Under the pieces are notes generated by a model. It was not told where the DNA came from. It saw nothing but the letters and a program-made list of their open reading frames with translations, and did not search any database. The position numbers and the translations under genes were made by a program. From Candidatus Iainarchaeum sp. (lineage in GTDB: Archaea > Iainarchaeota > Iainarchaeia > Iainarchaeales > JAGVWC01), in NCBI GenBank assembly GCA_018304465.1, contig JAGVWC010000009.1, positions 125,696-189,695 on the forward strand: 64,000 nucleotides of DNA, written 5' to 3'. Shown here piece after piece: positions 16,301 to 55,692 of this stretch (position 1 is the first letter of the stretch; each line of letters starts with the position of its first letter).

Positions 16301-18179
16301 CGATTGGAAATACGATTCGATTGCGGCCGAACAATGCAATTATGTCAGCGGCCAGAAATCGGACAAACAAAACAACTTTTGCGACGGCGTACAGCATTTG
16401 GCGGCCTTGACCAAGAAAGTCAAAGCGATTCGCGAAACCGTGTCGGCGAACGAAGCCAAATTCAATTCTGAGGAAACCATGAAAAAAGTATACGGAATCA
16501 CGGAGGACACAAAGCTTTCCGAGTACAAGATTTCCAGTCGATTGCCGCAATGGATGATCGAACACGTGATCATCAATCAGGACGTCGTGTTTAATGCCGG
16601 CAAGTTCCAATGGGTATCCGACAAAACCAAAACGAAACCCATGGCGTACATGGTCAGCAAGAAATCGGACGAGTTGCTGGTGAAAGGCGCGGTCAGTTCC
16701 GAGATGTTTACGCGCGTGAAAGCATTGAACGAAGTCACGAACAAGACGCCGAATCCCGAGACCTTTGGCGTGATTGTGTCCAAAATGAGCGAAGCCTTGA
16801 CGGGTTTGGCCGCGCTTCCCGCGGATTCCGACAAAATCGTTTTGTTGTTTGAAAAAAAACCCGAATTGGATGGACTATTGCCAAAATTGGGAGCGGATTT
16901 GGTTTCGATCAAGGACACGCAGTTCTATGCCTTGACCCTAAACGAATACGGGTTGTTCCACCAGCAATTGGCCGCGGTTTTGGACCTGGATAAAAAACAA
17001 TCCGCGGACATCCAGATCGGAGACACCACGGTGAACGTGACGAACGCGGCAATGCAATCGATGCTGGCCAACATCAAGGTGTTGTCCGCGGTGGAAGAAG
17101 GCGAAGGATCCGAATACACGTATTTCGCGTACAAGAACGGAAAATTGCGAAAAGAGCTCGAAGGATCCAAGATCGACCTTGAAAAGTTTTTCGAAACCTT
17201 CGTATTGGCGCAGACATTGCTGATCAAGGATAATTATTCCCAGCAATTAAAGGATAATTTCCAGTCCGCTTACCAAGGCGCGTTCGGATCCGAGAAAGAC
17301 ACGGATTATTTGAACGTGAAAAACTGGGAGTTTGAATCCCCGCAATTAAGCCAAAGCGGCGTGTACATGACCATGATCGAATACAACTGGGCGGACAGCC
17401 AAAAGCCCCTCAAGATCGGAATCACCAAGGATACGAGCGCGGTTCCCCAAGACGTGGCGGACGCCGTGGCCAACAATCCGTTGTTTTCCATGCCATTTGA
17501 CGTTTTGACAGTTCCGGGAACGGATTTCGGAACGGGAACCAGCGAACAATTCTTGATCGCGGCGCAAACCCGCTCGAACGTGACGGGCCAAACCATGGTC
17601 GCAAGCCAAGTCAAGAAACTCGGGGACGCAAAACTGCACTCGGGCGTTTTGTTTGAATTAAACCAGAACAACCTCGTGTTCGCGCCTTCGGTAGCGTACG
17701 CGTTTTCACAGACCCAAGCCGGCGAAACCGGTTTGCTTTACGAAGTCAAGATGGGCGGCAATTCGGCTCCGGCGATTCGTTGGAGTTCAGGTGAAGGCGG
17801 ATTGGGAACGCCGAAAAGCATTTGCGGCATCACGGGCGACAATCAGTATTATCTGGTGAAAGGACAATCGACCGCCGGAACATTGTTTTTGCCAGCGGAA
17901 GCGACTCCGGCCAGCGTGCGATTGATTTGTACGCAAAACACGGCTTCGCTTTCCGGAAAAAAATTCGAGTTCAAGAACGGCATCGTGGCCCCTAGCGCAT
18001 TAACCGGTGTTTCGACGACCAAGGATTCGAAAGCCAATAACGCGATGGATTTGGGGTTGTCCAGCGCTTCCGCGGTTTCTTTGTACGACATGGTCCAGGG
18101 AATCCGGTCGGGTTACGTGTGCATTTCTTCTTCTGGCGGATCCATGACCATGCATTGGAACGCAAAGCAGATCAAGTAA
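10365..18179 (+). CDS. Giant (2604 aa) membrane-anchored surface protein, paralog 2
   Basis: N-terminal LEDKYY..LD.L.SKG.PVY.VVD.I motif plus a TM helix, repeated V.D....PV.N..V.L Ig-like domains, two Y/G/P-rich inserts, and conserved FCDGVQH and C-terminal GYVC...HWNAK motifs. Confidence 0.9.
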   Translation: MGLGDSVKSFYLSLEDKYYSGLDWLDSKGVPVYGVVDAIESANIPSFPIFALLVLVILAGIGFVLIGGFSPAESNVSLSIVDEESNPVAAATVAAKIRDSTADPNSLISNVEGVVTFKVPFGTIVDVTVTKDGFAEAKESVSPNTAEFSKTIVLSESQSTDTRVIRIVNAADNSVYTAPISLRFSCIGNSSFSKEVTSQNGQVTVDGIPKNCGLLVAAVSTSGLSVGSGQIDLAAPSPVITVSEEQLITGTVKVVVAGETQKALSNINVRLLKQNGQSLGSQSTGETGIVSFEKVPIGKYFVRATDLGSPARFAEFDSSVKGTIKDVLENQSTEFAVTMEEKVLGKIKLLVRDSESLQPVSNVSVTLYKDKTELDVKSTGSDGKVEFSVGDTAPVYGLKLDHQSYLIATKASVGASDSVQEVLLEKLTSENGNSTEVSVVDQTNQPVENVKVVLKKLDGTIASEVLVTGSTGKARFSRLVPDTYYAFVSKEGIGENNSDSVAVTDRQLSKILVALEIGSGDFEVTVLDAGLQPLSGATVKAIDLYSQAVLATQSSQSDGKAKFSIRTDKRVFFEVTAPGFASFYTVSLSPQNGATRFVVSQLVADIAKLEVRWLGLAVGEEQVAEDSSTPPLKAGEKYTARLLLLIPKDTQLDEAGVHVRTGKSDVEAVNVLESDYLFISRINSAATGMIRGTTFSPPTGYAEDSTHLTTGDSKWANMVFSRPKGGAYQIEAEIVVRDNTPLGTTLEINYRGWGKTGSYVRFPTDRVLGENESAQGKQALYAVTNTKLYSVGPSSLCSGSFCTVISIQDLSQDLQTGVFDSFPAKPLTDYKLFFTIINNGSAAFGNAQVEVSTQTGGLVFDEYQITDSAGQRASGNASGAGSFSVPVNDFTQSSTIFGNVVFSTASEGITRLLITVKSSSSGVFQKAIDLEVEPLRDMNIDVLPKNIVSFLNNDLLVRATDRNSESGIPNVSIEIFQNDFRIASGVTDGSGVFRKTLQAPSPGSVFVLKAKKPGYKTVEQQLKVSPSILDVVPSSIEETLTTVGLFSLQKELIITNRTALDLTIREIRFNNDFNRLVRGRLSQNYAGQKLSQGIDSNVFVIIELTDDGKRLLQRQDVHGTLTIYVSDAENTATWANEIPVTVHIGFGGEVLEPKCLIISPDKTEVFSFGNAVTTQVLVANKCRADASFVPLQNLEAKVSWKGTGNEIGLFGLASTGETSASEESASFAGLSPSNGAYLSGVARFDAGATLSKIYRTTLEALNPNTENAFDLTFAPKPGIAGGSGIAVITFRAHHPANNGEELLSGSIEVPVNVNDLLRCIEIDRTQRLTVQSTPPGIGYGIYDQFGYGGSTNQGFGRFDYQGAQNYYGGYNNGTLGTGVYGGYGPGNVTVPPVGGASNANPTLVDYPERVQAFNYPYAGYSEPFYDTLSPYQGTSFGMPFNYSNAWRGQTNFFTVRNNCSIPVQIQLSPDPELLVDNAKFSLSPGNDQRVEIQSSNYYGSYRINVAGKAETGTDLPRKIASLNVDVMPADDPSRYRDCIKLSTTRFMFNDLVQRPVTAKVFNSCFGQGVRLDYDSVTFSNQAYGEIQAQSEGVNGLIQGVQVIDLSTRRMSGNQAQQVLEFEIYKNLSYRTQPGFPYQQAPQDDLYGLRIMATQAYNRVQSPGSLVVRYMTPEGMTQQKAFRVTLEDQWNLLNMLPMFSLGNPYIHPQQCLVEKALDFGSCLTDSDFAGKNTYSYSARRVLNVGGSQGGTGTGYGGVGSMYPYSPYANPAMVGNPSYGYNPYGTSPIGGYSGAQDPYLGNTFQPSNAPNALVQPYPYYNPSPTVSGYPNGQFGGQANMCGSVDSLILSGKEQGSVITKDGLRVTVAVATEGGVGGANAVRVTVDRSNVKAGRIEVNETLRAQVRRQTPLGTYDISLPLRVCVEFKQGGTGTGTPTPGGGAILGPDGIVPGSTPPVACDEASQQTGPGAFDKARFYMLKLDWKYDSIAAEQCNYVSGQKSDKQNNFCDGVQHLAALTKKVKAIRETVSANEAKFNSEETMKKVYGITEDTKLSEYKISSRLPQWMIEHVIINQDVVFNAGKFQWVSDKTKTKPMAYMVSKKSDELLVKGAVSSEMFTRVKALNEVTNKTPNPETFGVIVSKMSEALTGLAALPADSDKIVLLFEKKPELDGLLPKLGADLVSIKDTQFYALTLNEYGLFHQQLAAVLDLDKKQSADIQIGDTTVNVTNAAMQSMLANIKVLSAVEEGEGSEYTYFAYKNGKLRKELEGSKIDLEKFFETFVLAQTLLIKDNYSQQLKDNFQSAYQGAFGSEKDTDYLNVKNWEFESPQLSQSGVYMTMIEYNWADSQKPLKIGITKDTSAVPQDVADAVANNPLFSMPFDVLTVPGTDFGTGTSEQFLIAAQTRSNVTGQTMVASQVKKLGDAKLHSGVLFELNQNNLVFAPSVAYAFSQTQAGETGLLYEVKMGGNSAPAIRWSSGEGGLGTPKSICGITGDNQYYLVKGQSTAGTLFLPAEATPASVRLICTQNTASLSGKKFEFKNGIVAPSALTGVSTTKDSKANNAMDLGLSSASAVSLYDMVQGIRSGYVCISSSGGSMTMHWNAKQIK

Positions 18180-18246: not shown

Positions 18247-18852
18247 ATGGTTGAACGATCGGATTTGATGGTTTCTTTTTTGGTGGCATTCGCGTTCTGG
18301 ATGGTGGCCCGCGTGGTTGCCGTTATCGGACATTGGGAATACTCCTTGTTTTCGATTTCCACTCCGACCATGATCGGATTGGTGTTGATGGGAATCGTTG
18401 CGGTTTTTTTCTCGTCGCTTTTGTTTGGCCGCACGGTGTTCTTGACGTTTTTTTTGCTTGGAGTCATGACCAGTCCTGTGATTGGTTATTCCTCGGTGTT
18501 TCTTAATATCGCAGTCGGCGTCGCCTTGTCATTGGCAGGAGTCGTGGGCGTGTTGCTGGGGCAAAAGATTTCCGCGGATTTGCAGGAAGACGACCCATTG
18601 AAATTCAAGGACAAAGGGTTGATTCTTTTGGTGGTTGCAAGCGTAGTGTTGTGTGTTGGCGTCGGATTTTTTTCCGAACACATTAATTCGTTTAATGAAA
18701 AATCCCTTTCCGTGGCACGCGATGTGCGAGACGGAAAAATCGATTGGGTCAGCGCGGTCGCGCGTTTGGCGGGAACGGATTATAACTCAGCCATGACCCC
18801 GGATCCGAATGGGGCGGCTTTTGATCCAAACCAACTTCCGGGGCGTTCCTGA
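18247..18852 (+). CDS. Integral membrane protein (about 5 TM), unknown function
   Basis: Several hydrophobic segments; lies co-oriented between two giant paralogs. Confidence 0.75.
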   Translation: MVERSDLMVSFLVAFAFWMVARVVAVIGHWEYSLFSISTPTMIGLVLMGIVAVFFSSLLFGRTVFLTFFLLGVMTSPVIGYSSVFLNIAVGVALSLAGVVGVLLGQKISADLQEDDPLKFKDKGLILLVVASVVLCVGVGFFSEHINSFNEKSLSVARDVRDGKIDWVSAVARLAGTDYNSAMTPDPNGAAFDPNQLPGRS

Positions 18853-18919: not shown

Positions 18920-21900
18920 ATGGGTATTGTGGATGGGATTCGCGGAGTCTACTTCTCGCTGGAAGATCGATATTATTCTTTTCTGGATGCATTGGAGTCC
19001 AAAGGAATTCCGGTGTACAAAGTCGTGGATCCAATTGATTCCGTGGTTCCGTCGTTTCCGTTATTTGTATTGATTGTTCTTTTGTTGCTGGGGGGATTGC
19101 TCTGGTTTTTGGTGTTGCCAAATCTTTCGTTTGGAAACGCGCAGTTAAACGTCAAGGTGCTGGATTTTTCGGATAGTCCGATTTCCGGGGCCTCGGTCAC
19201 CGTGATTCGAAACGGAACCCAGACCATTGGCGTATCCGACGCACTGGGAAAAACCGCGTTTGATTTTCCCAAAGGAAGCGAAATCGCCGTCTCGGTGTCG
19301 CGTGAAGGATTCGATAATTTTGAGGTGCCCGCTTTTGTTTTGTCCGAAAGCCGCGAAGTCACCGCGCGATTAAGCACGGCGGGAAGCGCTTCCGGCGAAG
19401 CCGTGATTCGAACGATTCGCCTGTTAAGCCAGTCCGGCCAGCCCTTGGTCGGCGAAGACATTACCGTTTCTTTTTCGTGTTCCAATTCCGCGGCAAATCC
19501 ACCGGCAGAAGTCACGGTGACGACCGGAGAAGTCAAAGTCACGGAACCCGGTAATTGCGGCGGTTTGGTGGCCCAAATTAGGTCCCGAAATTTCAAGGAA
19601 GTCGCGTCTTTTCCCGTGTCGCAACTGGTCAACACCGCGTATTTGATTTCGAATTCGGCGGCGTTGGAAGAAGACCGCGGAACCATTGAAGTGTTGGTGA
19701 CGGAAAACAATCAAGCCGTTTCCGATGGCTTGTCGATCGTATTGTATCCTTTTGAAAGCGATATTTCCGTGGACAGTGCGCCCGTGCAAAACGGAAAAGC
19801 CGTGTTTTCGAACGTGGCCTTCGGAAAGTACGTGGTGAAAAACCGCGGAACCAGTGATTTTGCTCCGACGTCGGCCACACTGACCTTGTCTTCCAAGCGT
19901 CAAACGGTTTCATTGGCATTGCAAAAAAACGTGGCCGGAAAAATTGTTGTCAAAGTGATTGATGCGGATACGCGAAAACCCGTTCCGAATTCGACGGTTT
20001 CCTTGCGCATCGGAAACGACGAAGTCGAGAAAAAAACCACGAGCGACGATGGAAATGGTTCGCTTGAGTTTTTCGTTCCGCGGGACACGACCTACAATGT
20101 GGGTGTGAGTCATCCGGATTATTGTTTCGAAACCAGATCGGACCTGGGAATCAACAAGAGTTATTCGATTGAATTGGAGCCGTTCACGGCGTCCTGCGGC
20201 GGAACCATTGTCGTAAAAGTCGTGGACCAGGAAGGCATTCCGGTACAAAACGCGTTGGTGTCATTGGCCAGCGAACAACAGTTTTTTCTTGGAGCGGGAC
20301 AAGAAATATCGGATTTGAACGGCGTCGCCCGTTTTGCGGGAATCAAAGCGGGAACCTACACCGCGTTTGCGTTTAAGGGAACCAGTTCCGGCTGGAGCGA
20401 TCCCAAGTTTTTCAACCGGAAAAAAGGCGAAACCGAACAAGTGGATTTGATTGCGACACTGCAGATTCCAAACGGAATCGTTCGAATCCAGGTCGTTGAC
20501 AAGGAAAACCGCCCGGTTCCGTTCGCGACGATTACGTTTGTGGACGCGTTTGACAATCAGATCGTAGGCGGAGGCGCAAAGCCGGCGGATTCCAACGGCG
20601 TGCTTTCATGGGAAACGCGCGCGGACAAAACCGTGTACGCCATTGTCGAAAAAGAAGGGTTCGCGTCCGTTGCATCCCAATGGATCGAAGTAAAGCCGTC
20701 CACGATCCAGGAAGAACAGGTTCAGTTGTTGCCCCCCATCACGCAGTTCGAAGTCGAGCTTGTGGGATTGTTTTCGGGAAATCTTTCCACGCCTCCCGCG
20801 GGAAGCCCGACCGCGAGTCTTGCGGCCGGACAGGAATACGTCGCGCGTTTTAGAATCAAGATTCCGTCGGATCGGTCGTTTTCTTCCGATCACCCGTTTA
20901 ACCAGGTCGGAATCCATGTGCGAACGGGAACCGAAGGCATCATGGAAAAAGATTTCATTTTCTTAAAAGAAACCAACGCGCCTTCGGCTTCCGTTGTGCG
21001 TTCCACGTCGTTTACCGGAAAATACGTTTCGGATCTTGCCGCGGTCACGAGTTCGGACGCCAAGTGGGCGAACATGACATGGACCCGACCGCGCGCCGAC
21101 GTCATCATGGCACAAATCGTGGTCAAAGTCAAGGAAAACGCGGCGCTTGGAAAAAAGCTCGATATTTTCTATCGTGCCTGGGGGGGCCAAAACGGCGATG
21201 TCGTGCGTGATCCCGCGGACCAGACGGGCGGCGGACAAGAATTGTATTCGGACGCCAAAGACGCGAGTTTTACGGTCGGCGTCGGCACGTTGTGCGACGA
21301 ACGGTTTTGTTTTGACGCAAGCATTTACGATCAGCGCGACGCGTTGCGCATGCCCGTGACGGATTCGTTCGCGGCGCGAAACCTAGAAAATTACACGTTA
21401 AGCTTCGCGATCGGAAACACGTCTAAAATGGATACGGATACGTACCGCAACGCGGAACTGCGGCTCGAAGCGATCGAGGAAAATTTGTTGTTTAAACAGT
21501 ACACGATTTTTGACGCGGCGTCCGAGGGAAGCAAACCGATTACGGGCACCGCGAATGCCGCGGCGTTGCCGCGAATTACGATTGGAGATCTTTCACCCGG
21601 CCGGCGGATTTCCGGAGACATCGCGTTTATGCCCAAAATCCCGGGAACACACACGATTGATTTTAGGATCGTGGACACGGATTTGGGCCAGATCGTGTTT
21701 TCCAAACAATTGTCGATTATTTCGATTGCGGACAACGATTTTGTCATCGTGGTTTCGCCGGAAAAGCTTTCGCCGGGAATCGAAAACCCGGTGATCATTA
21801 CCGTGACGGACAAAGTCACGGGTTTGCCGGTCAAAGACGCGTTTGTCCGGTTACGGGACAAATTCAAGAACATTTTGTCGACCAGCCAGACGAATTCGCT

Positions 21901-22942
21901 TGGAATTGTCGAAACACGGTTGCCCGCGCAGGCCCCGGGAGAAATCCTGGATATTGAAGTCGAACGCGTCGAATACAATACATTGATCAAGAAAGTCACG
22001 GTGGACGGAGAAATTCTCACGCTTTCCCCCGAACGACTGGGTTTTTCGGTTAATCCGAAGAGCAAACCAACGGACGCCAAAGAATTCAAGATTTCAAATG
22101 TCGCGCCGTTTGAGCTTGCGATCGAAAGCGTTTCGCTTTCGGGAAAATTTTCGGGTTTGCTTGATTTGGATTCCACCAATAACGCGTTGCATTCCTGGGC
22201 TGGCGCCAAAATCAAAGCCAATGATTTCGTTTCGATTTCGGTTCCCGTAAAAACATCCACACAGGCAACCGATCTGGAAGCCTTGACGGATTTAAGCGGT
22301 GTTTTGACGGTGCGGGTATCCAGCCAGGGTCATGCGTGGGATTTCGAGATTCCGGTTCAGATTACCGTTGGTCTTGGCGGCGAAGTGGATGATCCCGCGT
22401 GTTTGACGTTAAGCCAAACCGAATGGGTGTCAAGTTCCCAGGGAAAACCCATTGTCCTGGAATTTTCGATTCAAAACAATTGTTCGATCGCGGGAAAACC
22501 CGTGGACATTTCAAATGTCGAAACGCGCATCGCTTGGATCGGAAACCAAACCGGCGAGTTCGAATTATCCACGGATGTCAGCAATTCGATTTTGCGATCG
22601 GGTTATTTCTTGACGATTTTGCCCAAACTGGAAGCCGGAAAAAGCGTGGTCGCGCGATTGACGTTTACGCCTAATGCCCAGGTCATTGGATCCACGAAAG
22701 CAACAGTGGAATTCCAGGCCACGAACCCGACGGATTCGGCACCCCAGACTTTGTCCGCCCAGCTTTCCGCGGATTTGGATGTCGTGAATTTGTTGTCGTG
22801 TGTTTCGTACGACAAGGAATATATCGAAATGCAGGCGGAAGAAACATTTAATCCCAAGGTTTCGGCCGTGGGCTTTGGCGTGTCCCAAAGCATTAATCCG
22901 ATCACGGGTCGGGTCACGGCGGGAGACGATAATTCCGATTGA
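18920..22942 (+). CDS. Giant surface protein, paralog 3, N-terminal part
   Basis: The N-terminus is nearly identical to that of 10365 (FSLEDRYYSFLDALESKGIPVYKVVD..PSFP). It also shares GIHVRTG, DAKWANM, YRAWG and GLGGEV..P.CL motifs. Confidence 0.9.
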   Translation: MGIVDGIRGVYFSLEDRYYSFLDALESKGIPVYKVVDPIDSVVPSFPLFVLIVLLLLGGLLWFLVLPNLSFGNAQLNVKVLDFSDSPISGASVTVIRNGTQTIGVSDALGKTAFDFPKGSEIAVSVSREGFDNFEVPAFVLSESREVTARLSTAGSASGEAVIRTIRLLSQSGQPLVGEDITVSFSCSNSAANPPAEVTVTTGEVKVTEPGNCGGLVAQIRSRNFKEVASFPVSQLVNTAYLISNSAALEEDRGTIEVLVTENNQAVSDGLSIVLYPFESDISVDSAPVQNGKAVFSNVAFGKYVVKNRGTSDFAPTSATLTLSSKRQTVSLALQKNVAGKIVVKVIDADTRKPVPNSTVSLRIGNDEVEKKTTSDDGNGSLEFFVPRDTTYNVGVSHPDYCFETRSDLGINKSYSIELEPFTASCGGTIVVKVVDQEGIPVQNALVSLASEQQFFLGAGQEISDLNGVARFAGIKAGTYTAFAFKGTSSGWSDPKFFNRKKGETEQVDLIATLQIPNGIVRIQVVDKENRPVPFATITFVDAFDNQIVGGGAKPADSNGVLSWETRADKTVYAIVEKEGFASVASQWIEVKPSTIQEEQVQLLPPITQFEVELVGLFSGNLSTPPAGSPTASLAAGQEYVARFRIKIPSDRSFSSDHPFNQVGIHVRTGTEGIMEKDFIFLKETNAPSASVVRSTSFTGKYVSDLAAVTSSDAKWANMTWTRPRADVIMAQIVVKVKENAALGKKLDIFYRAWGGQNGDVVRDPADQTGGGQELYSDAKDASFTVGVGTLCDERFCFDASIYDQRDALRMPVTDSFAARNLENYTLSFAIGNTSKMDTDTYRNAELRLEAIEENLLFKQYTIFDAASEGSKPITGTANAAALPRITIGDLSPGRRISGDIAFMPKIPGTHTIDFRIVDTDLGQIVFSKQLSIISIADNDFVIVVSPEKLSPGIENPVIITVTDKVTGLPVKDAFVRLRDKFKNILSTSQTNSLGIVETRLPAQAPGEILDIEVERVEYNTLIKKVTVDGEILTLSPERLGFSVNPKSKPTDAKEFKISNVAPFELAIESVSLSGKFSGLLDLDSTNNALHSWAGAKIKANDFVSISVPVKTSTQATDLEALTDLSGVLTVRVSSQGHAWDFEIPVQITVGLGGEVDDPACLTLSQTEWVSSSQGKPIVLEFSIQNNCSIAGKPVDISNVETRIAWIGNQTGEFELSTDVSNSILRSGYFLTILPKLEAGKSVVARLTFTPNAQVIGSTKATVEFQATNPTDSAPQTLSAQLSADLDVVNLLSCVSYDKEYIEMQAEETFNPKVSAVGFGVSQSINPITGRVTAGDDNSD

Positions 22943-25900
22943 CGATTAAAACCGCGGATTGCGGCGGTGCCACGTCGTTTTCGCTTGAATCGGAACTCAA
23001 GTTGTCGCCAACCGAGTTTTCGCTTTCGGATAACGGCGCTCAGCAAATCGTGATTACGGCCGATGACCGCGTTCCGGGTCAGTACGGCGTCAAAGTGCTG
23101 GTCAAAGGCGCGGGAGCGGTCACGACCAAGCAAATCAAAACGATTCCGGTCGTATTGGCCCCCGCGCGCGATGAATGCGTGTTGTTGACCAAATTTGAAT
23201 ACAACGTGTTCCGAAACGAAGATGTTCCGGGATCCGGAATCGATACCGCGAAAGTCATTAATCAGTGTTATGACAAACCCGTGCAAGTCATGATTGATCG
23301 GCATTCGTTAGACGATGCCATGGCGGAAGGACAACGATGGGCGGCAATGGGGCTTGCCATGGGAATGATGGGCCAAATGAACCAGAATGGCGGGTTGTTT
23401 AGCGGTTTGTTTGGCGGGTCCAGCAATGATTCGAACGCATCTCCGGGGTCCGGCAGCAATTCGAACACGCCTCCGGCTTGGAAAGAGTTCAAGGACGCGG
23501 GAACCGTATTGGTCGCGAACGGAACCGGCGGATTTGTTTCGGCCAATGCCTATAAAGACAACGCGGGAAATGAGTTCGTGTTTGAAAACGGCATGTATTA
23601 TCCAGTACGGCAACGATCCGACGGAAGATATGAAAAGGTTCCAAACGGAGCCCCCGTTGCCTCAAACGGATCCGTGGGTTCGACGGCCACCGGTCCGAAC
23701 GCAAGCGTCATTGCGCAAAAAGAATCCGAAATCGCGCAGTTGAACAGTCAGATTTCATCCGAACAAGCGAGCGCGACGAGTCTGGGTTGCCCCAATGGAA
23801 AGCCCGAGTGCCAAACCAGTATCGATCGCATTCATAGTCTGAACGTTCGGATCAGTTCTTTGGAGTCCGAAATCAGTGGATTGCAAACCACACCGCTCAC
23901 GGGACGGTTTTCATTGACGGGTTATCAGTTCTTGCCGTTTGCAGGCCAGGGTTTCTTCGGTTCCGGTTCAACGAATTCGGACGCGGAAAACGAATGTAGT
24001 TTTGTGGATTCGGATGGAACGCTTTCCAAGAGCCGGCAAGACGCGGACAGCGAAATTTCGTCTTTGCAAACGTTACCGATGTTCGCGAGTCTTTTGGGCG
24101 GCGGAAACATGGGCAATGCGTTTTCGCAGGCCATGATGATGTATGCCATGGGAACCGCGCAAGCCTACAATGCCCAAACCGATGTTTGCATCTGGACCGT
24201 GCAACGCGACGTTCAATTGGGTTCCGGTGGACTAGGCGGTGTACTGGATAATTTGGCGAGTTTTTTCACCGGAAACCAGGCCAAAGGCGTTTACAAATTA
24301 TTGGATTCCACGGGAATTGACGACCGGGTGTTTTCCGGCGTCAGTGTGGAAGAATACCGAAAACCCATTGTGTCGCCGCGCAAAGACAATCAGGAATTAA
24401 GCACGGAAACGCGGTTCATCAAGGTTTCAAACGACGACGGTTTGGTCCAGGCAGACGCCTTGAATCCGTTGTTTGCCATGCTGGCGATTAACGGCGTTCG
24501 CCACGTGTATTTGCCTGAACAAATCTACGAAAGCCAAAAGCCCAGCGTGTTAAAGGAAGGCCCCAGTCAAAAGCTTTCATCGAAGTTTCATATTCAATTG
24601 AATTCGTATAAGCCCGAACCGGATTCCGTGATTTCTCCAGAGATCGGCAACTGCCAGATCGGACAAAAAATCGGTAGCACGGGTCCGAACGCGGTTCCAC
24701 GCCTCAAATTCGCGTGGGGTTGGAACGAAATCAATTTCGATTCGTGCGATTCGGATAATCCGGAGTATATTTATTGTGACGCCACGCAGTTTTCGATCGC
24801 GTTATTGAAAAAAATGGAAGTGTTACGCGAATTCACGACCGTGAACGCCTTGACGTTCGAGTGTCCATCCGCAGTCAGCTCCGTGACCCCGACCGAACAG
24901 GCGTTGTCCAAAACGGGTCTTGACATCGGCGTGACCAAACTTGAAATCGTGCGAAACCAATTGGATGCAAACATGGTGGCCACGGTTGAAAATTCGAACA
25001 ATGTATCGGGTTCCGCGGAATTGACCACGATTATTACGAATACCGCCAATGGAAAAGTCGAAAAAACCTGTATCGAAACGGTTTCGTTTCTATCGAAAAC
25101 CACGTCCGGTTGTCTGGTGCAAAATCTGGCCCCGGGCGAATACCGCGTCAAAGCGCTGTTGGGCGCCGTGTCATGCACGGGCTGCCAAAACGCCGTGAGC
25201 TTTAACGATTCTTTGGAAGACACGTTTACCACGGGCTTTGAAGGACTTGCGTGCGCCGCCAACTGGACCAATACGAGTCATTTGGAAGAAATCATCGCGG
25301 CTACCGAAGGCGCGTCCAAATCATTGGTGTATCCGGCGGGCTTTGACAAGGAAAAAATCGTCAAACTTGCCAGTTTTAGGGCGCACTTGATGAAAGACGG
25401 GTATTCAACCGGTTTTCGAAAAGATTTCCATTCGTATGCTTTGACGCAATCCTTGTTCCAGACGCCTGAGTTTTATTCGCAACCCGATGGGTTAGGCGAA
25501 TATTTCTCGGATCCCGCCAAAATGCAGTTTGAATACTTCGGCAGTCCGAATGGAACGCTTTCAGAACCCGGCATTTACCAAGTGGACCTCGACGTGAATT
25601 TTTCGGATCAGCACATGGCATGGTTCGAGAACTCGACCCCCGTCGCCACGATTTTGGTGACCATGGAAAAAACCGGGGACGCAAAGCCCGCGAGCCCGTT
25701 TTATTATTATCCATTGGACGGCGCATTGGGATTGCAAAACGGCCGCGTGGGATACGGAACCAACTTCGAGTTGGAAACCCCGGACAAACCCATCGTGATT
25801 GCGGCAACGGTTGACCGCGCGTTGTTGTCGCAATCGATTCCGGGAAGCATTCCGGCGGCAACCGTCAAAGCATATAAAATCACGGACTTTGCGACGTTGA

Positions 25901-26571
25901 ATGTTTCAAACCGTGGATTGTTGTTTTCCATTGATTCGCAAACCGATGAATGGAAACTCGCGCCAAGCCTCGCGACCCCGGTGATCATGAAAGTATCCGC
26001 GACCAGTACCGCGGACGCGTTTGGATTTTATTCTTTGGAAGTGGATTCTCAACCGCAAACGAATCTTCCGTTCTTGTCGCGCTGGAGCGGAATCTCGCCG
26101 TCTTGCAAGGACTTTGCCGGAGACGGTTTGGATAAGTATTCGGAAACCCCGGATATTTCGGGGGTCAATGCCCATTGTTCGGCGTTGGGTCCCAACAGCG
26201 CGGTGTCATACGGATTCGAATGGTGTAACCGCAAGTTGCCGGGAACGGTTTCGTTGCAATCCGTGTTTTTTACGCCCACTGAAAGCAGCGCGGTATTGCG
26301 TTTGACGGGTCAAAACGAATCCGTTTCGTTTATCGGTTTACAGGGAAGCGGTCAAAACGTGGAATTGGCCGGAGTCCCCGGAATGGCATTCAATAGTCAT
26401 TCGAACGCGATTTCTTCGGTTCAGGATGTATTAGACCTGGTAGCGGAAGGCCAAGTGTGTGTCACGGGATCGGAAAACGCGGTTCGAACCGAGTTTTTCT
26501 GGAACCCCAAAGTGGTGTTGGATGGCTTAGCGCAGGTACGCGACGCGACCACGCAGGCATGCATCCAATAA
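22939..26571 (+). CDS. Giant surface protein, paralog 3, C-terminal part (likely joined to 18920..22942 by a -1 frameshift)
   Basis: Collinear with the C-terminal half of 10365..18179 (TGP.A, YCDATQF..LLKK, LMKDGYS, GQVC...FFWNPK). It has a TTG start and no signal peptide. Confidence 0.85.
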   Translation: MTIKTADCGGATSFSLESELKLSPTEFSLSDNGAQQIVITADDRVPGQYGVKVLVKGAGAVTTKQIKTIPVVLAPARDECVLLTKFEYNVFRNEDVPGSGIDTAKVINQCYDKPVQVMIDRHSLDDAMAEGQRWAAMGLAMGMMGQMNQNGGLFSGLFGGSSNDSNASPGSGSNSNTPPAWKEFKDAGTVLVANGTGGFVSANAYKDNAGNEFVFENGMYYPVRQRSDGRYEKVPNGAPVASNGSVGSTATGPNASVIAQKESEIAQLNSQISSEQASATSLGCPNGKPECQTSIDRIHSLNVRISSLESEISGLQTTPLTGRFSLTGYQFLPFAGQGFFGSGSTNSDAENECSFVDSDGTLSKSRQDADSEISSLQTLPMFASLLGGGNMGNAFSQAMMMYAMGTAQAYNAQTDVCIWTVQRDVQLGSGGLGGVLDNLASFFTGNQAKGVYKLLDSTGIDDRVFSGVSVEEYRKPIVSPRKDNQELSTETRFIKVSNDDGLVQADALNPLFAMLAINGVRHVYLPEQIYESQKPSVLKEGPSQKLSSKFHIQLNSYKPEPDSVISPEIGNCQIGQKIGSTGPNAVPRLKFAWGWNEINFDSCDSDNPEYIYCDATQFSIALLKKMEVLREFTTVNALTFECPSAVSSVTPTEQALSKTGLDIGVTKLEIVRNQLDANMVATVENSNNVSGSAELTTIITNTANGKVEKTCIETVSFLSKTTSGCLVQNLAPGEYRVKALLGAVSCTGCQNAVSFNDSLEDTFTTGFEGLACAANWTNTSHLEEIIAATEGASKSLVYPAGFDKEKIVKLASFRAHLMKDGYSTGFRKDFHSYALTQSLFQTPEFYSQPDGLGEYFSDPAKMQFEYFGSPNGTLSEPGIYQVDLDVNFSDQHMAWFENSTPVATILVTMEKTGDAKPASPFYYYPLDGALGLQNGRVGYGTNFELETPDKPIVIAATVDRALLSQSIPGSIPAATVKAYKITDFATLNVSNRGLLFSIDSQTDEWKLAPSLATPVIMKVSATSTADAFGFYSLEVDSQPQTNLPFLSRWSGISPSCKDFAGDGLDKYSETPDISGVNAHCSALGPNSAVSYGFEWCNRKLPGTVSLQSVFFTPTESSAVLRLTGQNESVSFIGLQGSGQNVELAGVPGMAFNSHSNAISSVQDVLDLVAEGQVCVTGSENAVRTEFFWNPKVVLDGLAQVRDATTQACIQ

Positions 26572-26618: not shown

Positions 26619-27038
26619 ATGGTGCCTATGATCACGGGTTTTGACATTATGGCCGTTTTTGCGGACTTTAACCTGATCCTAAAACTATTTGTTTTGATCA
26701 TGATTATTTCGTTTGTCAAAAGCCATTTGGGCGGAGGCCCTTTGGCGACCATGGTCATGGTGTTCATTGCTTTTTTCGTTATTTTCGACGCGTGGAAGAT
26801 TTTTGGCGGAATTTATCTTTTGTACGCCATTATCACGTTAGGGTTTTCCGGGTTATTGATTGATTTTTTCTTTGTTACGCCGCCGTTGGCCAATCAGCGG
26901 GAAAATCCCGAATCGGATGCGGGAGAAGGCATCAACAGTCAGGATGTCAAGGAACGGATTAACCGTTTGCATATGGCCGGGGGTCGCGCAGGCCATCATG
27001 GCGGTCGCCCGCCGGGTCCGCCGCCCATGATGGGATAA
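26619..27038 (+). CDS. Small membrane protein, family A member 1
   Basis: 3-4 TM segments, motif FVKSHLGGGPLATMVMVFIAFFVIF, C-terminal GPPPMMG. Confidence 0.8.
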   Translation: MVPMITGFDIMAVFADFNLILKLFVLIMIISFVKSHLGGGPLATMVMVFIAFFVIFDAWKIFGGIYLLYAIITLGFSGLLIDFFFVTPPLANQRENPESDAGEGINSQDVKERINRLHMAGGRAGHHGGRPPGPPPMMG

Positions 27039-27050
27039 TGGGTTGAGAAA

Positions 27051-27371
27051 ATGAATCAAAAAGGAAACCTTGTACTGTTTGGACTGCTGGGACTGGTACT
27101 CGTCGGCGTGGTGTCTTTCCTTATTATCATGTTTGTTCCGCAAGCCGCGATTCTGATGCGCATCGTCCTGGTTTTTGCGATTTTCATGACGGTGCGCGGC
27201 GCGATCGGAGACGGTACTCCAACGTTGTTGATTTCCGCGATTTTGATTTATTTTTTGGCATTCAAGTATTTTGAATTGGCGGCCGCGGGCTATGTGGTGT
27301 ATTTCATGGTCGCGTATACGGGTACGACGTTGTTTAGTTTTGGATTGCGTTTTTTCTTCGGAAAGCATTGA
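27051..27371 (+). CDS. Small membrane protein, family A member 2
   Basis: Motif TVRGAIGDGTPTLLISAILIYFLAFKY. The N-terminus MNQKG|NLVLF resembles a class III signal. Confidence 0.8.
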   Translation: MNQKGNLVLFGLLGLVLVGVVSFLIIMFVPQAAILMRIVLVFAIFMTVRGAIGDGTPTLLISAILIYFLAFKYFELAAAGYVVYFMVAYTGTTLFSFGLRFFFGKH

Positions 27372-27381
27372 GGGATGAAAC

Positions 27382-27627
27382 ATGGTGTCAAGCGTTTGGT
27401 TGGATTCGTTGTTTGGAAACCTGGAGATCGCCTTGATTTTGTTTTTTTTCGTATGGCTTTTTTCGTGGGCCAAAGGAAGTCTTGGAAGCGAAAAACTCGC
27501 GGTTTTTTTCGCGATCCTGATCATTTACTTGACGGTGTTCCAGTATCGGGAATTGATTTGGATTGCCGTGGCGTTGTTTTTGTTGTCGACGTTTGGAAAA
27601 GAGTTGTTTTCGAAATTGTCAAAGTGA
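27382..27627 (+). CDS. Small membrane protein, family A member 3
   Basis: Motif WAKGSLGSEKLAVFFAILIIYLTVFQY; purine-rich RBS upstream. Confidence 0.8.
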   Translation: MVSSVWLDSLFGNLEIALILFFFVWLFSWAKGSLGSEKLAVFFAILIIYLTVFQYRELIWIAVALFLLSTFGKELFSKLSK

Positions 27628-27639
27628 AACACAGAGGGA

Positions 27640-27954
27640 TTGTCGTTGGAAACCATGAATTTGTTGATCGCGGTGGTGCTCATGCTCCTCGGAGCCACGT
27701 ACAGCGAGTTTTGGATCGTAATCGGAATCGCGGCCATCATGGTGTTAACAGAGCGGAATCTTTCGACGTTTGTCATGATGACGTTGGCGATTGTCTTAAT
27801 TTACGGGTTTAAAGGCGTGCTATCCGACTACATTCCCCATATCCTGCTCGGAATGATTATTTTGGCGTTGGTGTTCAACAAGCCCGCGCAGCAACCCCAG
27901 GGAATGGATATGGGCGGATTGGAAGGATTATACGGTCCGCCGCCCATGGGGTAA
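27640..27954 (+). CDS. Small membrane protein, family B member 1
   Basis: IAVVLMLLGATYSEFW motif, about 4 short TM segments, C-terminal GPPPMG. Confidence 0.75.
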   Translation: MSLETMNLLIAVVLMLLGATYSEFWIVIGIAAIMVLTERNLSTFVMMTLAIVLIYGFKGVLSDYIPHILLGMIILALVFNKPAQQPQGMDMGGLEGLYGPPPMG

Positions 27955-27966
27955 CGAGGCGGTTTT

Positions 27967-28542
27967 GTGGATATCGATATTTTCGGGATTGTCATCGCGT
28001 TTTGCCTGATTTTGTTGGGGGCCGTGTCCGAGCGCTGGTGGTTTGTTTTTCTTTCGGCGCTCGTGTTTTTCGCGTTGTTTCCGACCATTACCACGTTTTG
28101 GATCCTGGTAGGCGCCATTATCCTCAGTTACATTTGGGCGAATTCGTTTGACGAGTTGTCGTCCCAGGGATTTTTGCTGATCATTGTTTTGATCGGAAGC
28201 GCGGTCATCGCGATTTCGCTGGGTGAAGTGTTCATTGGATTGTTGTTGTCCTTGGCGTTGGTGTTCTTGTTTTTGTTAACGCCAAGCGTGAAATTAAGCA
28301 AGAAAGTGTCGCGAAAAGCGCGTGAAGAATTCGACGATATTCACGCGGGTTTGAAAAAAACCAAGGGACAGCATCCGGATTTGTTCGGAACCGTGGAAAA
28401 TCTTTCCAAGGACACCGGAGCGATTGCGGGAGAAGCGTGGGTCACGAATCCGAATCAAAAACTGGTTTCAAACGATTTGGTGACCCGGATTTCTCAGGGA
28501 TCGAAAAACCTGTTGGACGGATTGGGAAAACTGTTCAAATAG
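27967..28542 (+). CDS. Membrane protein, family B member 2, with a soluble C-terminal tail
   Basis: IAFCLILLGAVSERWW motif, multiple TM segments, amphipathic C-terminus (NLLDGLGKLFK). Confidence 0.8.
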   Translation: MDIDIFGIVIAFCLILLGAVSERWWFVFLSALVFFALFPTITTFWILVGAIILSYIWANSFDELSSQGFLLIIVLIGSAVIAISLGEVFIGLLLSLALVFLFLLTPSVKLSKKVSRKAREEFDDIHAGLKKTKGQHPDLFGTVENLSKDTGAIAGEAWVTNPNQKLVSNDLVTRISQGSKNLLDGLGKLFK

Positions 28543-29073
28543 TTATTTTCGTTCTTGTAGTTCGGTAACGATTTGGCGGTTGGTGTCCAGCAATTTGTCC
28601 ATGATGGTTTTGTAGGCGGCCATTTGGGTTTTCATGTCGTTGATTTCGTTTTCGAATCCGGCGATCCGGTTTTCGACGCGCGTGATGGAATCGCTTAATT
28701 GCAAGGCCGGCAATTCCGATATTTTGGCGAGTTTGGCGTCAAGGGATCGGAATTCTTCCAAAAGATTTTGAATCTGTTCGCTTTGTTCTTCGAGTACCAC
28801 GTGCGTGGTCGCGTGCAAGGCTTCATCGTGGCTGGATTGGGGGGTTTGCGGCAATCCGGGTTCTTCGTCGTCTTCGGTTTCAAAATCGTCCGTTTCATCC
28901 GAAGAATTGGTTGAAACGGAGGGAGTAGACGCGGTTTGTCCGCCTTGGAGGTATTCGTTTACTTCGTCTTTGCTTAAACCGATGTCTTGTAACGTGGATT
29001 CGATGACGTGGTCGCTGATGCCAGACGATCGCATGCGCTGGATTGTTTCCATGACGACTTGTTTGTCCACCAT
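28543..29073 (-). CDS. Acidic coiled-coil protein
   Basis: Small N-terminal helical domain, D/E-rich linker and a heptad-repeat C-terminus. Confidence 0.8.
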   Translation of the reverse strand: MVDKQVVMETIQRMRSSGISDHVIESTLQDIGLSKDEVNEYLQGGQTASTPSVSTNSSDETDDFETEDDEEPGLPQTPQSSHDEALHATTHVVLEEQSEQIQNLLEEFRSLDAKLAKISELPALQLSDSITRVENRIAGFENEINDMKTQMAAYKTIMDKLLDTNRQIVTELQERK

Positions 29074-29205: not shown

Positions 29206-30717
29206 TTGAAGACGCCGGGCGGTCCGTGGGAAACGGTGTTTGCGGCCCAACAACCCGATGTGGATATTCGGGTGGAATTCAATGAAGAATCCCTGTTGCT
29301 GGTCAGCGTAACCGAAAAAAAGGACGGGAAAAACACAGGAGTCGTGTTGGATTTATTTCGGGCGTTTGTTTCCGAGACCAATCCCCAGACCTTGATTGAA
29401 AAGCTTCCGTTTCCCTGCATCGAATTCGGATTGCATACGGATGGATCCACGACGTACTGGATCGTGCTCGTGGACAGCGGAACGGTTTTTTCCGAACCGG
29501 ATGAAGGAAAAATTTCGCGCTTGTTTTCCGAACAGAAAAAAAAACTGGAATCGATCGAAGAACAATTAAAACCCAGCGTGTTGGCGTTGGACCACAAATT
29601 CGAGTGGCTTAGTCACGCGCCGATGGATGTGCGAAGCGCGTTTTTCGGATCGCTTTTGGTGCCTCCGATGATTGTTTCGCGAACAAAAACGGGTCCCGCG
29701 CAACAGGCCCCGGTTGCGGTTTCGGGAACGATCATGCGTTTTGGGGAAATGAAAGTCGGCAAGACAAAAGACGGCGCCTTGGTACGCGAACCATTGGTGT
29801 TGCTGAAAAAAACGATTATCGTTGGCGGGACTCCAAAAGACCGTTCACGCGTACTGCGCGTCTTGATCGAAAGCGTGTTGTTATCCGGATCGGCGGCTGT
29901 GATCGTTGACTCGCAGAATTCGTTTTCGGGTTTGCGCGAACCCAATCCGAATGCCGCGGAAGTCGCGGAAAGCGGTTTTGAATTGACTCCGATCGGTTTT
30001 CCAACCGAAGAATTCGAGGTTCCGAACAAGTTATGGGTGAATTTTTCGAACTTGGACATCGAATCGATGCTGGAATTGTATCGCGTCGGAAAAACTCCCG
30101 CGGCCAAAGTAATCAAAATGGTGTTTGATTTAGGCGTTGCCGCAAACTGGCGACAGCTGGTTGACACGATCAAGATTCAGTCCCCGGCCGCGGACGTGAC
30201 GCGTTTTCATTTGAACAAGGCGATGCGTCTTGCCGCGCTAATCGATAACAGTTATCCGGGTTCTTTTAACGGTCCGAATAATATGTCGAATATCGCGCGT
30301 TCGCTTGAAACCGGTTTGGGCCGAGCGGCGATCGTTCATACGGACAAGATGGATAATCGATTGCGGTTGCTTGTTTTGCACGGGCTTGTGCGCGAATTAC
30401 GGCATTTTTTCGAACAATCGCCGAATCGTCAACCCTTGTCGTGCATGCTTTTTTTGCCGCAGGCCTCCGAGTTTTTTCCGTTTCGCGAAACCGCGCGAAT
30501 TTCAAGGGTAATCGAGGAAGACCTCAACGCGATGGTGAACTTCGGCGTAGGCGTCACCGTGGTCGCGGAAAAAGGAATGGATTTGCACGAAACGATTCCG
30601 CGACAGATGGATTCGGAGTTTTCGATTGTTTCGGGAAAAGACGTGGGGCTTCGGATCGAAAAAAGAAAACCGTATCGCGTGATCATCCGAAATCCGCTGA
30701 GCCGATTGTCCGAATAA
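29206..30717 (+). CDS. HerA/FtsK/VirB4-superfamily (DUF87/DUF853-like) P-loop protein with degenerate motifs
   Basis: TIIVGGTPKDRS sits at the Walker A position, AVIVDSQNSFSGL matches hhhhDxxGE(Y/F), MLFLPQASEF sits at Walker B, and NFGVGVTVVAE matches (R)K(F/Y)GhGhhhxxQ. Confidence 0.65.
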   Translation: MKTPGGPWETVFAAQQPDVDIRVEFNEESLLLVSVTEKKDGKNTGVVLDLFRAFVSETNPQTLIEKLPFPCIEFGLHTDGSTTYWIVLVDSGTVFSEPDEGKISRLFSEQKKKLESIEEQLKPSVLALDHKFEWLSHAPMDVRSAFFGSLLVPPMIVSRTKTGPAQQAPVAVSGTIMRFGEMKVGKTKDGALVREPLVLLKKTIIVGGTPKDRSRVLRVLIESVLLSGSAAVIVDSQNSFSGLREPNPNAAEVAESGFELTPIGFPTEEFEVPNKLWVNFSNLDIESMLELYRVGKTPAAKVIKMVFDLGVAANWRQLVDTIKIQSPAADVTRFHLNKAMRLAALIDNSYPGSFNGPNNMSNIARSLETGLGRAAIVHTDKMDNRLRLLVLHGLVRELRHFFEQSPNRQPLSCMLFLPQASEFFPFRETARISRVIEEDLNAMVNFGVGVTVVAEKGMDLHETIPRQMDSEFSIVSGKDVGLRIEKRKPYRVIIRNPLSRLSE

Positions 30718-30720
30718 GAT

Positions 30721-31233
30721 TTATTTCCGTTTTTTCATTTTTTGTTCGAATAATTCGTCGAATTGTTTTAAGGTAATAAAATCCATGGGATTGATCGTGT
30801 CAATCACGTATTTCATTTCTTTGAGCGCTTCGATTTTGGCGTAATGTTCTTTGACGTCGGATAATTCGTTTTGGAGTTCGAGCATTTTTTGGGCTTGGGT
30901 TTCGACTTTTGCGGACAAATCTTTGAGCAGAACCGCGGTTTCGACGGAAACGCCGGAATTTTGTCCGCCGCCAATGCCGTTCGATTCGATTTCGCGGATG
31001 CGCTTGGATAAAACAATCAGGTTTCGGCCCAGGATTTTTTCATTGCGCACGAGGTACTGCATTTTTTGGCTTAAAATCAATACGCTGGAATTTAAGGCGC
31101 GGATGTCGGCTTGAAGTTGAGAAAAAACCGTGGCGGTTTGGGTTTGGGACGGCATTGAAGCGGGTCGACTGGTTTGGCCCGCAGACGCCGGTTGGCTGGG
31201 GGGCGCGGTTTGGACTCGTCGTTCGTGCACCAT
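30721..31233 (-). CDS. Coiled-coil protein of unknown function
   Basis: Heptad repeats; C-terminal KEMKYVIDTINPMDFIT motif. Confidence 0.75.
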   Translation of the reverse strand: MVHERRVQTAPPSQPASAGQTSRPASMPSQTQTATVFSQLQADIRALNSSVLILSQKMQYLVRNEKILGRNLIVLSKRIREIESNGIGGGQNSGVSVETAVLLKDLSAKVETQAQKMLELQNELSDVKEHYAKIEALKEMKYVIDTINPMDFITLKQFDELFEQKMKKRK

Positions 31234-31319
31234 AGGCAAAAAAACCCTTCGTTGTGCAAGAATAAACGCAGTCCATACTTAAAAAGATTTGTTTGCATAT
31301 TCGAATCGGACGGGGTTTA

Positions 31320-38315: not shown

Positions 38316-38436
38316 TGCAGGGAGGCGGATTCGAACCGCCGAACGCACTAAGCGGCCGGCTCGTTCCAATTTTTCGCAGAATATTTCACGAAAAACTGCC
38401 TGAAGCCGGGAGGTTTGACCGCTCCCCAATCCCTGC
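38316..38436 (-). tRNA. tRNA-Leu (CAG) with a 37-nt intron at position 37/38
   Basis: Acceptor stem GCAGGGA/TCCCTGC, anticodon arm CCGGC-TTCAGG|A-GCCGG, long variable arm, T loop TTCGAAT. Confidence 0.93.
38362..38398 (-). other. tRNA intron with a relaxed bulge-helix-bulge motif
   Basis: Intron stem AGTTTTTCG/CGAAAAATT, central helix TTCA/GGAA with one mismatch, and 3-nt bulges GGC and CGA. Confidence 0.85.
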
Positions 38437-55530: not shown

Positions 55531-55692
55531 CAGTCGTTACGACTGAAACCAAAAAGGTGCTGAGGGACGTTCGAAAAATCAAGTCCAAATAATCAAATCA
55601 ACCGGTCTTGACACGTACTCCATCAACCGATTACTTGACAGAACCGGAAAAAGAAATATTTAAATAGTAGAAAGCTGCACGTAGGATCATTG

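Follow-up and report, generated by a model that had tools for sequence, protein, structure and literature searches.

Three ancient paralogs of a small membrane protein family are encoded between giant surface proteins and a degenerate HerA-fold protein in Iainarchaeota

DNA import by the Ced system of crenarchaea involves the small proteins CedA1 and CedA2, the polytopic protein CedA, and the HerA-like ATPase CedB. The export gate of type III secretion, FliP/FliQ/FliR (also known as SctR/S/T), is built from paralogous small subunits that form helical hairpins. For the Nanohaloarchaeota, giant membrane-anchored surface proteins (SPEARE) are described that contain a VirB4/TraG-like ATPase domain, with a second VirB4/TraG-like ATPase encoded downstream of the giants (PMC10266531). 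In this study, we analyzed a 64-kb stretch of a Candidatus Iainarchaeum sp. genome (the window), in which three small membrane proteins, here called A, B, and C, are encoded in tandem between genes for giant surface proteins and the gene for a 503-residue protein with a predicted HerA fold. Profile comparisons indicate that A, B, and C are true paralogs, ancient copies within one small integral-membrane family. Collectively, our results point to a cell-envelope machine that has not been described so far. The reading that we favor, to which we assign a probability of roughly 0.45, is that a heteromeric membrane adaptor containing the three paralogs links the giants with a cytoplasmic hub, which would comprise the noncatalytic HerA-like protein and coiled-coil proteins.

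[quoted passage not shown] Compared by description and not by sequence, the two arrangements differ in three respects. The Iainarchaeum giants have no ATPase domain detectable with Pfam and have an N-terminal helix anchor with a conserved, predicted cytoplasmic peptide; the Iainarchaeum HerA-fold protein is separate, soluble, and devoid of catalytic motifs; and five small membrane proteins, the paralogous trio among them, lie in between. The Iainarchaeum cluster would be a variant of the SPEARE theme, the closest published parallel that we found, with separate outer and inner genes, a degenerate HerA-like part, and a triplicated new family between them. The Ced system is likewise archaeal, combines small hydrophobic proteins with a HerA-superfamily protein, and has a hairpin with a basic loop. 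In contrast to Ced, the Iainarchaeum cluster features a third membrane helix, predicted cytoplasmic tails, three conserved paralogs, giants, and a degenerate P-loop, contains no polytopic CedA-like gene, and is near-universal in one phylum; neither sequence similarity nor convincing structural similarity to Ced was found with Foldseek, a wide structural search, or a profile search of the PDB. The export gate offers an analogy only, in that related small proteins with membrane helices form one hetero-oligomeric core accompanied by a cytoplasmic ring ATPase, and a gate chain (8axk_K) reached Z 5.4 in the wide structural search, which is within noise. Unlike the trio, to which it has no sequence similarity, the gate is for the most part located outside the bilayer, and the F1-like ATPase that it serves is active; nothing in the Iainarchaeum cluster indicates a secretion channel.

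A preliminary description of the window had proposed that A, B, and C are tandem paralogs with a shared hairpin motif. The three open reading frames (ORFs) are present where it had placed them, and the stretches that it had quoted align without gaps. In pairwise BLASTP comparisons of the single sequences, B matched C (E 1e-4, 15/53 residues identical), and A gave no significant match to either B (E 65) or C (E 2.5). Because the case was thin on three single sequences, we collected ortholog profiles of 19 (A), 19 (B), and 20 (C) sequences, 58 in total, from syntenic loci. These orthologs came from 20 of the 38 related genomes in which the 503-residue protein was found; as much as 8 kb flanking its gene toward the cluster was taken from each, one locus (L035) giving 2.5 kb only because it meets a contig end. 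All three pairs of profiles matched significantly in hhalign, with a probability of 97.7% and E 1.8e-12 over 73 columns for A and B, 95.6% and E 1.2e-8 over 70 columns for A and C, and 72% and E 3.3e-5 over 44 columns for B and C, and each alignment keeps the register given in the preliminary description. Three controls were run because membrane proteins can match by composition alone. Against the equally hydrophobic neighbor families D and E, the profiles of A, B, and C reached hhalign probabilities of 0.3 to 10.6%, with D at 1.2% or less in every comparison; the real pairs scored 71, 47, and 31 compared with 12 to 15 for reversed targets; and the top score among column shuffles (30 per pair) was 16.7. 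Given significant profiles and clean controls, we consider the tandem paralogy of A, B, and C to be borne out.

A MAFFT alignment of the 58 sequences has no gaps through the core. The shared unit is not a hairpin only, as had been suggested, and extends over ~70 residues and three membrane helices. This three-helix core contains a conserved loop motif, (K/R)xxLGxG, of which the Gly is present in 56 of the 58 sequences, the K/R four residues earlier in 50, and a hydrophobic residue directly before the Gly in 57; in B, the loop Arg and the Gly are found in 19/19 members. The AlphaFold2 (AF2) model of A, with a predicted local distance difference test (pLDDT) score of 77.5, consists of three helices, spanning residues 4-37, 41-55, and 59-86, with a further helix in the tail (residues 107-120). 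By family hydropathy profiles, A and C each have three hydrophobic segments; B has a fourth, which is N-terminal. Lys and Arg residues are concentrated at the C terminus and in the loop that follows core helix 1, with acidic residues at the N terminus and in loop 2. With the charges distributed in this way, the (K/R)xxLGxG loop and the tails are predicted by the positive-inside rule to face the cytoplasm, with very little of the proteins exposed outside. In longer A-type members from elsewhere, the extra length consists only of a charged low-complexity tail. In the window, A and D have C-terminal tails (26900-27038 and 27880-27954) that are rich in Pro, Gly, Tyr, and Met, and both end in a PPPM-G motif; in a sister order, such a tail sits on C instead (L060:14287-14733 and L062:14797-15249). 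The Pro/Gly/Tyr/Met-rich tail seems to move between subunits.

The preliminary description had taken the three proteins as possible parts of a VirB2/CedA1-like pilus, a proposal under which A, B, and C would be VirB2/TraA/CedA1-like pilins of a conjugation or DNA-exchange pilus with a HerA/VirB4-superfamily neighbor. Some features fit this proposal, as the first two transmembrane helices (TM1 and TM2) and the basic loop between them do form a helical hairpin, a HerA-superfamily protein is encoded nearby, and the conjugation pilus chain 8dfu_B of Aeropyrum pernix ranked 12th in the wide structural search (Z 5.8, root mean square deviation 5.0, 59 residues). However, that search returned generic helical hairpins only, at Z 5.4 to 6.3 with none reaching 8, and 8dfu_B is tied with dozens of unrelated hairpins within this range; a Foldseek comparison of the A model with the PDB gave no match at E <= 0.001. 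When the 58-sequence profile was searched against all PDB chains at E up to 10, the single match was a choline transporter-like protein (E 0.027) and not a solved pilin, a result that leaves room for kinship given that pilins are short and divergent. Mature pilins of the VirB2/TraA/CedA1 type consist essentially of two hydrophobic helices and a short loop, whereas the A model has three long helices plus the tail helix and the families have three to four hydrophobic segments; a third membrane helix is present in all three proteins, and A has a predicted cytoplasmic tail as well. Three distinct paralogs are retained, compared with the one major pilin of a pilus. The best matches of the neighboring 503-residue protein are of the HerA type and not of the VirB4 type, and its P-loop is degenerate in 21/21 sequences. 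In addition, the cluster is near-universal, chromosomal, and not a mobile element; no relaxase, VirD4, or integrase turned up in general Pfam/NCBIfam scans of the window ORFs; and no polytopic protein with at least six helices is encoded between the giants and cc2, the last gene of the cluster. We therefore regard the pilus as very improbable.

Searches for relatives of the trio led to proteins without names or domains. Of the candidates that were scored with the profile of C, 346 proteins matched at E <= 0.001. Within the best 120 of these 346, no Pfam domain was found, the names, where given, were "hypothetical protein," and the sources of named matches were Candidatus Diapherotrites or Micrarchaeota archaea. 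A scan for C in one genome per species yielded 66 loci, nearly all of them from Candidatus Iainarchaeum, Diapherotrites, or "archaeon." Three loci (L078, L097, and L103) carry C in bins labeled Chloroflexi, Falkowbacteria, and Thaumarchaeota, where Iainarchaeota contigs have probably been mis-binned. Within the phylum, C was found in 182 of 201 genomes, including all 58 of those that are at least 90% complete. A search of the ESM Atlas with C returned unnamed archaeal clusters only, the best of which (0.92) is commonest in Candidatus Iainarchaeota; two clusters labeled Microcaldota, at 0.88 and 0.85, are leads only. A merged A/B/C profile gave 193 matches at E <= 0.001 among 1.84 billion representative proteins. 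One of them, P0205, a 3878-residue cadherin-like repeat protein of eukaryotic type, was set aside as spurious. Another protein, P0174 (348 residues), joins a HerA-like homolog in its first ~270 residues to a B homolog in its last ~75 residues; it stems from a single 2.6-kb contig, is probably an assembly chimera or a deletion, and was not used as evidence of a fusion. Full-text searches of the literature lying outside subscription journals and supplements brought up no account of either the family or the cluster. Thus, the A/B/C family is without a counterpart in Pfam, the PDB, or the literature searched, and, going by labels, it is restricted to Iainarchaeum/Diapherotrites archaea.

The number of copies is constant over a wide range of relatives. 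When ten additional genomes were scanned with the merged profile, exactly three copies were found in eight of them: in 5/5 genomes from further families of the order and in three of five from other orders of the class, the other two having two copies (at a contig end) and one copy. In a tree of 68 sequences and 90 columns, B and C each form a clade with a Shimodaira-Hasegawa-like approximate likelihood ratio test (SH-aLRT) support of 99. Because both clades take in members from other orders, the sequences place the triplication before the split of the orders, with all three copies kept since.

The gene context of the trio was compared within the order and beyond it. The cluster, at 10365 to 31239 of the window, is a long same-strand run in which only the genes of the two coiled-coil proteins, cc1 and cc2, are reversed (Table 1); the small hydrophobic ORFs A to E within it are separated by spacers of 9 to 12 bases. 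Among 20 syntenic loci, A, B, and E were each found in 18 and C and D each in 19, and their order matches that of the window; the misses are L035 at its contig end and genome G029, which encodes A and B at another place. In 18/20 loci, the trio is contiguous. With 20 kb added upstream and 6 kb downstream, eight extended loci all have the order giants, A to E, cc1 (reverse), the HerA-like gene, and cc2 (reverse). E was detected by BLAST in three of these eight loci, the count of 18/20 given above coming from profile detection. Other orders of the class contributed four loci, three of which have an intact block A-B-C-D-E-cc1-503-residue gene-cc2. The gene cc1 has a tblastn match at the same place and in the same orientation in 20/20 genomes fetched (37 locus rows) and in 4/4 sister-order loci. 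The cc2 relatives are 34 to 52% identical and have 15 invariant columns; 19 loci of relatives (L005-L023) extend over the downstream flank, and 18 of them encode cc2 at the same position, and cc2 is also present in 4/4 sister-order loci. Database searches with cc1 (PDB included) and cc2 returned coiled-coil matches only.

Table 1. Features of the Iainarchaeum cluster and the gene preceding it, in window coordinates
Feature	Position	Strand	Description
g4	8755..10257	+	500 aa, N-terminal hydrophobic helix; its relatives precede giants
g5	10365..18179	+	2604-aa giant surface protein; orthologous to giant 1 of the three encoded in tandem in relatives
g6	18247..18852	+	201-aa hydrophobic ORF between giants; membership uncertain
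g7	18920..22942	+	1340 aa; N-terminal half of the "giant 2" ortholog
g8	22939..26571	+	1210 aa; C-terminal half of the "giant 2" ortholog, in another reading frame
A	26619..27038	+	139 aa; three membrane helices and a charged low-complexity tail, predicted to be cytoplasmic
B	27051..27371	+	106 aa; three-helix core with one extra membrane helix before it
C	27382..27627	+	81 aa; minimal three-helix core; best conserved of the trio
D	27640..27954	+	104 aa; four-helix membrane protein with a Gly/Pro/Tyr/Met-rich tail; unrelated to A, B, and C
E	27967..28542	+	191 aa; membrane helices and a conserved soluble C-terminal domain; D-like N-terminal addition
cc1	28543..29073	-	176 aa; conserved 42-residue N-terminal domain, acidic linker, coiled coil
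HerA-fold protein	29206..30717	+	503 aa; degenerate Walker A and B motifs
cc2	30721..31239	-	172 aa; strongly conserved coiled-coil protein

In three genomes (G032, G005, and G029) the cluster is broken, each time between B and C. The giants, A, and B lie 138 kb (G032) and 310 kb (G005) away from C, D, cc1, and the gene for the 503-residue protein, and in G029 the giants, A, and B are inverted and lie just beyond that gene, with C, D, and E remaining upstream of it. All three split genomes show the same division, in which A and B keep the company of giants that bear the N-terminal signature described below, and C that of D, cc1, and the HerA-like gene. E was seen with C in two of them, and cc2 in one (in G032, both E and cc2 were seen with the C module); in the others, the place where cc2 is expected lies outside the scanned stretch. 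Because the breaks fall between B and C, the cluster consists of two modules, and members of the one small family occur in each. This division lends itself to an alternative in which A and B are membrane partners of the giants only, as insertion helpers or co-anchors, C belongs to a separate HerA-like/coiled-coil system, and the paralogs have no mutual contact, their adjacency being inherited. In favor of such a separation, the modules of G032 and G005 lie far apart and neither module has been lost, and within the order the conserved gene order extends past the cluster, with PolB as the next gene in 8/8 loci. However, most genomes by far have the modules side by side, also in other orders that lack the PolB linkage; all copies are present in eight of the ten genomes searched with the merged profile; and the paralogs keep the same loop motif, as would be expected if they had a partner in common or touched each other. 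We consider the separation of A and B from C unlikely.

The 503-residue neighbor, found in 38 of 41 related genomes, resembles HerA in fold and departs from it in its motifs. A profile of 21 sequences matched HerA (4d2i) in the PDB at E 9.4e-5, and Pfam DUF87 matched 5/21 members, with a best E of 3.8e-5. The AF2 model (pLDDT 84.4) has 4d2i_B as its top Foldseek match (E 5e-14, template modeling scores 0.46/0.50), all matches listed being HerA, and the model is predicted to combine an N-terminal beta domain with a RecA-like core, as in HerA. The overall fold is common to this protein and the HerA proteins of the DNA-end resection complex HerA-NurA and of the defense complexes SIR2-HerA and DUF4297-HerA (among them PDB 4d2i, 9x1l, 7wrw, and 8xav), although identity to the HerA structures is ~10 to 12%. 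At the structurally aligned P-loop, GK[ST] is present in 0/21 sequences, Arg replaces Lys in 21/21, and Asp or Glu takes the place of the preceding Gly in 16/21, so that the commonest Walker A form is GxxxxDR, compared with GxxxxGK[ST] in HerA. The Walker B Asp is present in 18/21, and a Glu next to it, as in the Asp-Glu pair of HerA, in 0/21. The window protein has a GK[T] 20 residues upstream of the P-loop, which is shared by only 2/21 members and lies in a beta strand. In P-loop NTPases, loss of such motifs makes hydrolysis unlikely, and because the Walker A Lys and the Walker B Asp-Glu are lost, it is unlikely, judging from these motifs, that the 503-residue protein hydrolyzes ATP. It also differs from HerA in its partners, as it pairs with membrane and coiled-coil proteins and HerA pairs with a nuclease. 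Two canonical DUF87/HerA genes are present elsewhere in the genome.

A HerA-like protein without catalytic motifs would imply that another energy source is needed for any active process. By analogy, the trio might then be an ion or small-solute channel, or a stator-like energizer that would drive the surface proteins by ion flow and so make up for the dead ATPase. Asp16, Lys22, and Asp82 of A are invariant, and Lys22 and Asp82, conserved in 19/19 members, are charged residues at or in the membrane helices, which would suit such a role. However, an equivalent charged pair is absent from B and C, and scanning the 58 members singly against Pfam gave no transporter, channel, or stator family, with 0/58 above the curated cutoff and a best, scattered E of 0.007. 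The commonest subthreshold match was MNHE, in six members at E of at least 0.14, and the choline transporter-like protein at E 0.027 was the only sequence match in the PDB. No known transporter subunit was thus matched above a curated cutoff, and A to E of the window match no Pfam or NCBIfam family at E <= 0.01. A channel or energizer role for the trio thus appears quite improbable to us.

The giants form the other side of the proposed coupling. The preliminary description had counted three giant paralogs in the window, equal in number to the small proteins, but only g5 and g7 are paralogous (27% identity over 1373 residues), and g8 is the other half of the gene of g7; the equality in number fails in the window, which has two giants, and in the sister orders, where a single giant with the shared N-terminal signature was found. 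In 8/8 relatives from other families of the order, there are three tandem giants of 2083 to 3253 residues. The best BLAST match of g5 is giant 1 in 6/8 of these genomes, that of g7 is giant 2 in 7/8, and that of g8 is the C-terminal part of giant 2 in 7/8, and the third giant of the relatives is missing from the window. At the g7/g8 junction (22930-22945), the two ORFs are in different frames and overlap by four bases. The public sequencing runs listed as carrying the locus are 12 DNA runs from soil and groundwater metagenomes, with no RNA run among those listed. Contigs of three runs (X2, X3, and X7) have 46 extra letters at ~22936, with which the g7 and g8 frames would join into a giant of ~2565 residues, and a loose end in run X5 shows 28 letters that are open in the g8 frame. 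In this record, the g7/g8 split probably stems from a deletion or from faulty assembly. The giants, that is, g5, g7, and their relatives, start with a conserved N-terminal signature of ~45 residues, followed by one hydrophobic helix, by Ig-like, CarboxypepD_reg, and MG domains (all three found by Pfam in g5), and by a conserved Trp-rich, Cys-containing motif at the end. A profile of the signature recognizes the giants beside A and B in the split genomes at E 7.6e-4 to 1e-26. From this layout, the giants are predicted to be single-pass proteins with the N terminus inside and the bulk outside.

How the parts would work together can be outlined as a model. A, B, and C look like three non-interchangeable subunits of one membrane assembly, because the copies are equally old, their number is kept, the loop motif is common to them, and they are split between two modules. 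The suggestion in the preliminary description that they are subunits of a hetero-oligomeric ring holds up in part, since they appear from their sequences to be nonredundant old paralogs and are encoded in a tight same-strand run, and nothing in our analysis bears out the ring. A complex prediction for A, B, and C, each with its own alignment, scored 0.00 with the fold of the partners uncertain, a result that speaks neither for binding nor against it. We propose that A, B, and C, together with D and E, may form the heteromeric membrane core or adaptor of an Iainarchaeota-specific envelope apparatus. On the outer side, the giants would be anchored by their single N-terminal helix, with the ~45-residue peptide pointing toward the cytoplasm; on the inner side, the hub would consist of the HerA-fold ring protein, probably without ATP hydrolysis, and the two coiled-coil proteins. 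A and B would sit on the giant side and C on the hub side, and their homologous cores could make the contact between the two sides. We speculate that the role may be the anchoring, arranging, or turnover of the surface coat, and not ATP-driven export. A more specific version is doubtful in our estimation. In it, the apparatus would be a previously undescribed trans-envelope organelle, with an A/B/C(/D/E) adaptor docking the giants to a HerA-like ring that is catalytically silent and that the two coiled-coil proteins brace, and it would be through the paralogous trio that the separately encoded outer and inner modules recognize each other. Physical contacts, stoichiometry, and the function of the apparatus are, like the topology, features that we infer.

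Several points weigh against the coupling of giants and hub through the trio. The predicted topology of A, B, and C has a single source, the positive-inside rule, and the proposed contacts among them and with their neighbors are derived from one kind of evidence, the genes. The number of giants varies from one to three (two in the window, three in the relatives, and one in the sister orders) while the trio is constant; there is therefore no simple one-to-one pairing, and an arrangement with one giant per small paralog was rejected. C went unmatched in 19 of the 201 genomes of the phylum, all of which are 68 to 89% complete, and A is not resolved as a single clade in the 68-sequence tree. The fourth sister-order locus (L063) has C, an E-like ORF, cc1, the 503-residue gene, and cc2 only, A and B being undetected there. 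Finally, gene order within the order is by itself weak evidence of function, because the conserved order runs on into housekeeping genes. The argument from context therefore rests on the loci from sister orders and on the three split genomes; in the four other-order loci, no PolB match was found in the 1.0 to 2.8 kb after cc2.

Further observations concern the neighbors of the trio and the rest of the window, which comes from an archaeal genome of 1.25 Mb in 15 contigs that is 92% complete. In most relatives, E is a protein of 115 to 130 residues with two helices, and its family has 18 members after jackhmmer. The extra N-terminal part of the window E resembles D, a jackhmmer search started from the window E pulls in the whole D family, and the long form with a D-like start is shared only with locus L025 of the closest relative. 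The cluster is followed in the window by PolB and then by an M24 peptidase (Pfam); in the eight extended loci, PolB follows cc2 in 8/8 and the M24 peptidase is next in 5/8. The PolB beside cc2 in genome G015 has 1255 residues, compared with ~800 elsewhere, of which only 620 align, and it may carry an intein or another insertion. Between the giants, g6 has no Pfam/NCBIfam match and no BLAST relative in the eight extended loci. Proteins like g4 (490 to 555 residues) are encoded just upstream of the first giant in 3/8 extended loci, the other five of which begin inside or right at the first giant. g4 and its relatives (500 to 750 residues; L060:10739-12469, L061, and L062) have a basic start, Gly/Ala-Phe, and a long hydrophobic helix, an N terminus that we take to resemble a class III (type IV pilin-like) signal of archaea. 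Elsewhere, the genome encodes two prepilin peptidases of family A24 and several ATPases of the FlaI/PilB type. The window is unusually rich in surface proteins, with further large secreted proteins that have cysteine-rich acidic repeats at 5464-8664, 55690-60129, and 60130-61338; TIGR02232 matches g3 at E 8.5e-13, and NF033662 matches the ORF at 60130-61338 weakly. Downstream of the cluster lie a LAGLIDADG-domain ORF (38386-39462, minus strand) and an IS5/IS1182-type transposase (43628-44512, minus strand).

DPANN archaea have tiny genomes and yet devote tens of kilobases to giant surface proteins. In the 1.25-Mb genome studied here, g5, g7, and g8 together take up ~15 kb. The cluster adds a case of a strictly conserved HerA-fold protein that has lost its catalytic motifs, and its five-protein membrane set, near-universal in the phylum, is a testable candidate for a machine that would anchor or organize the cell surface of these archaea.

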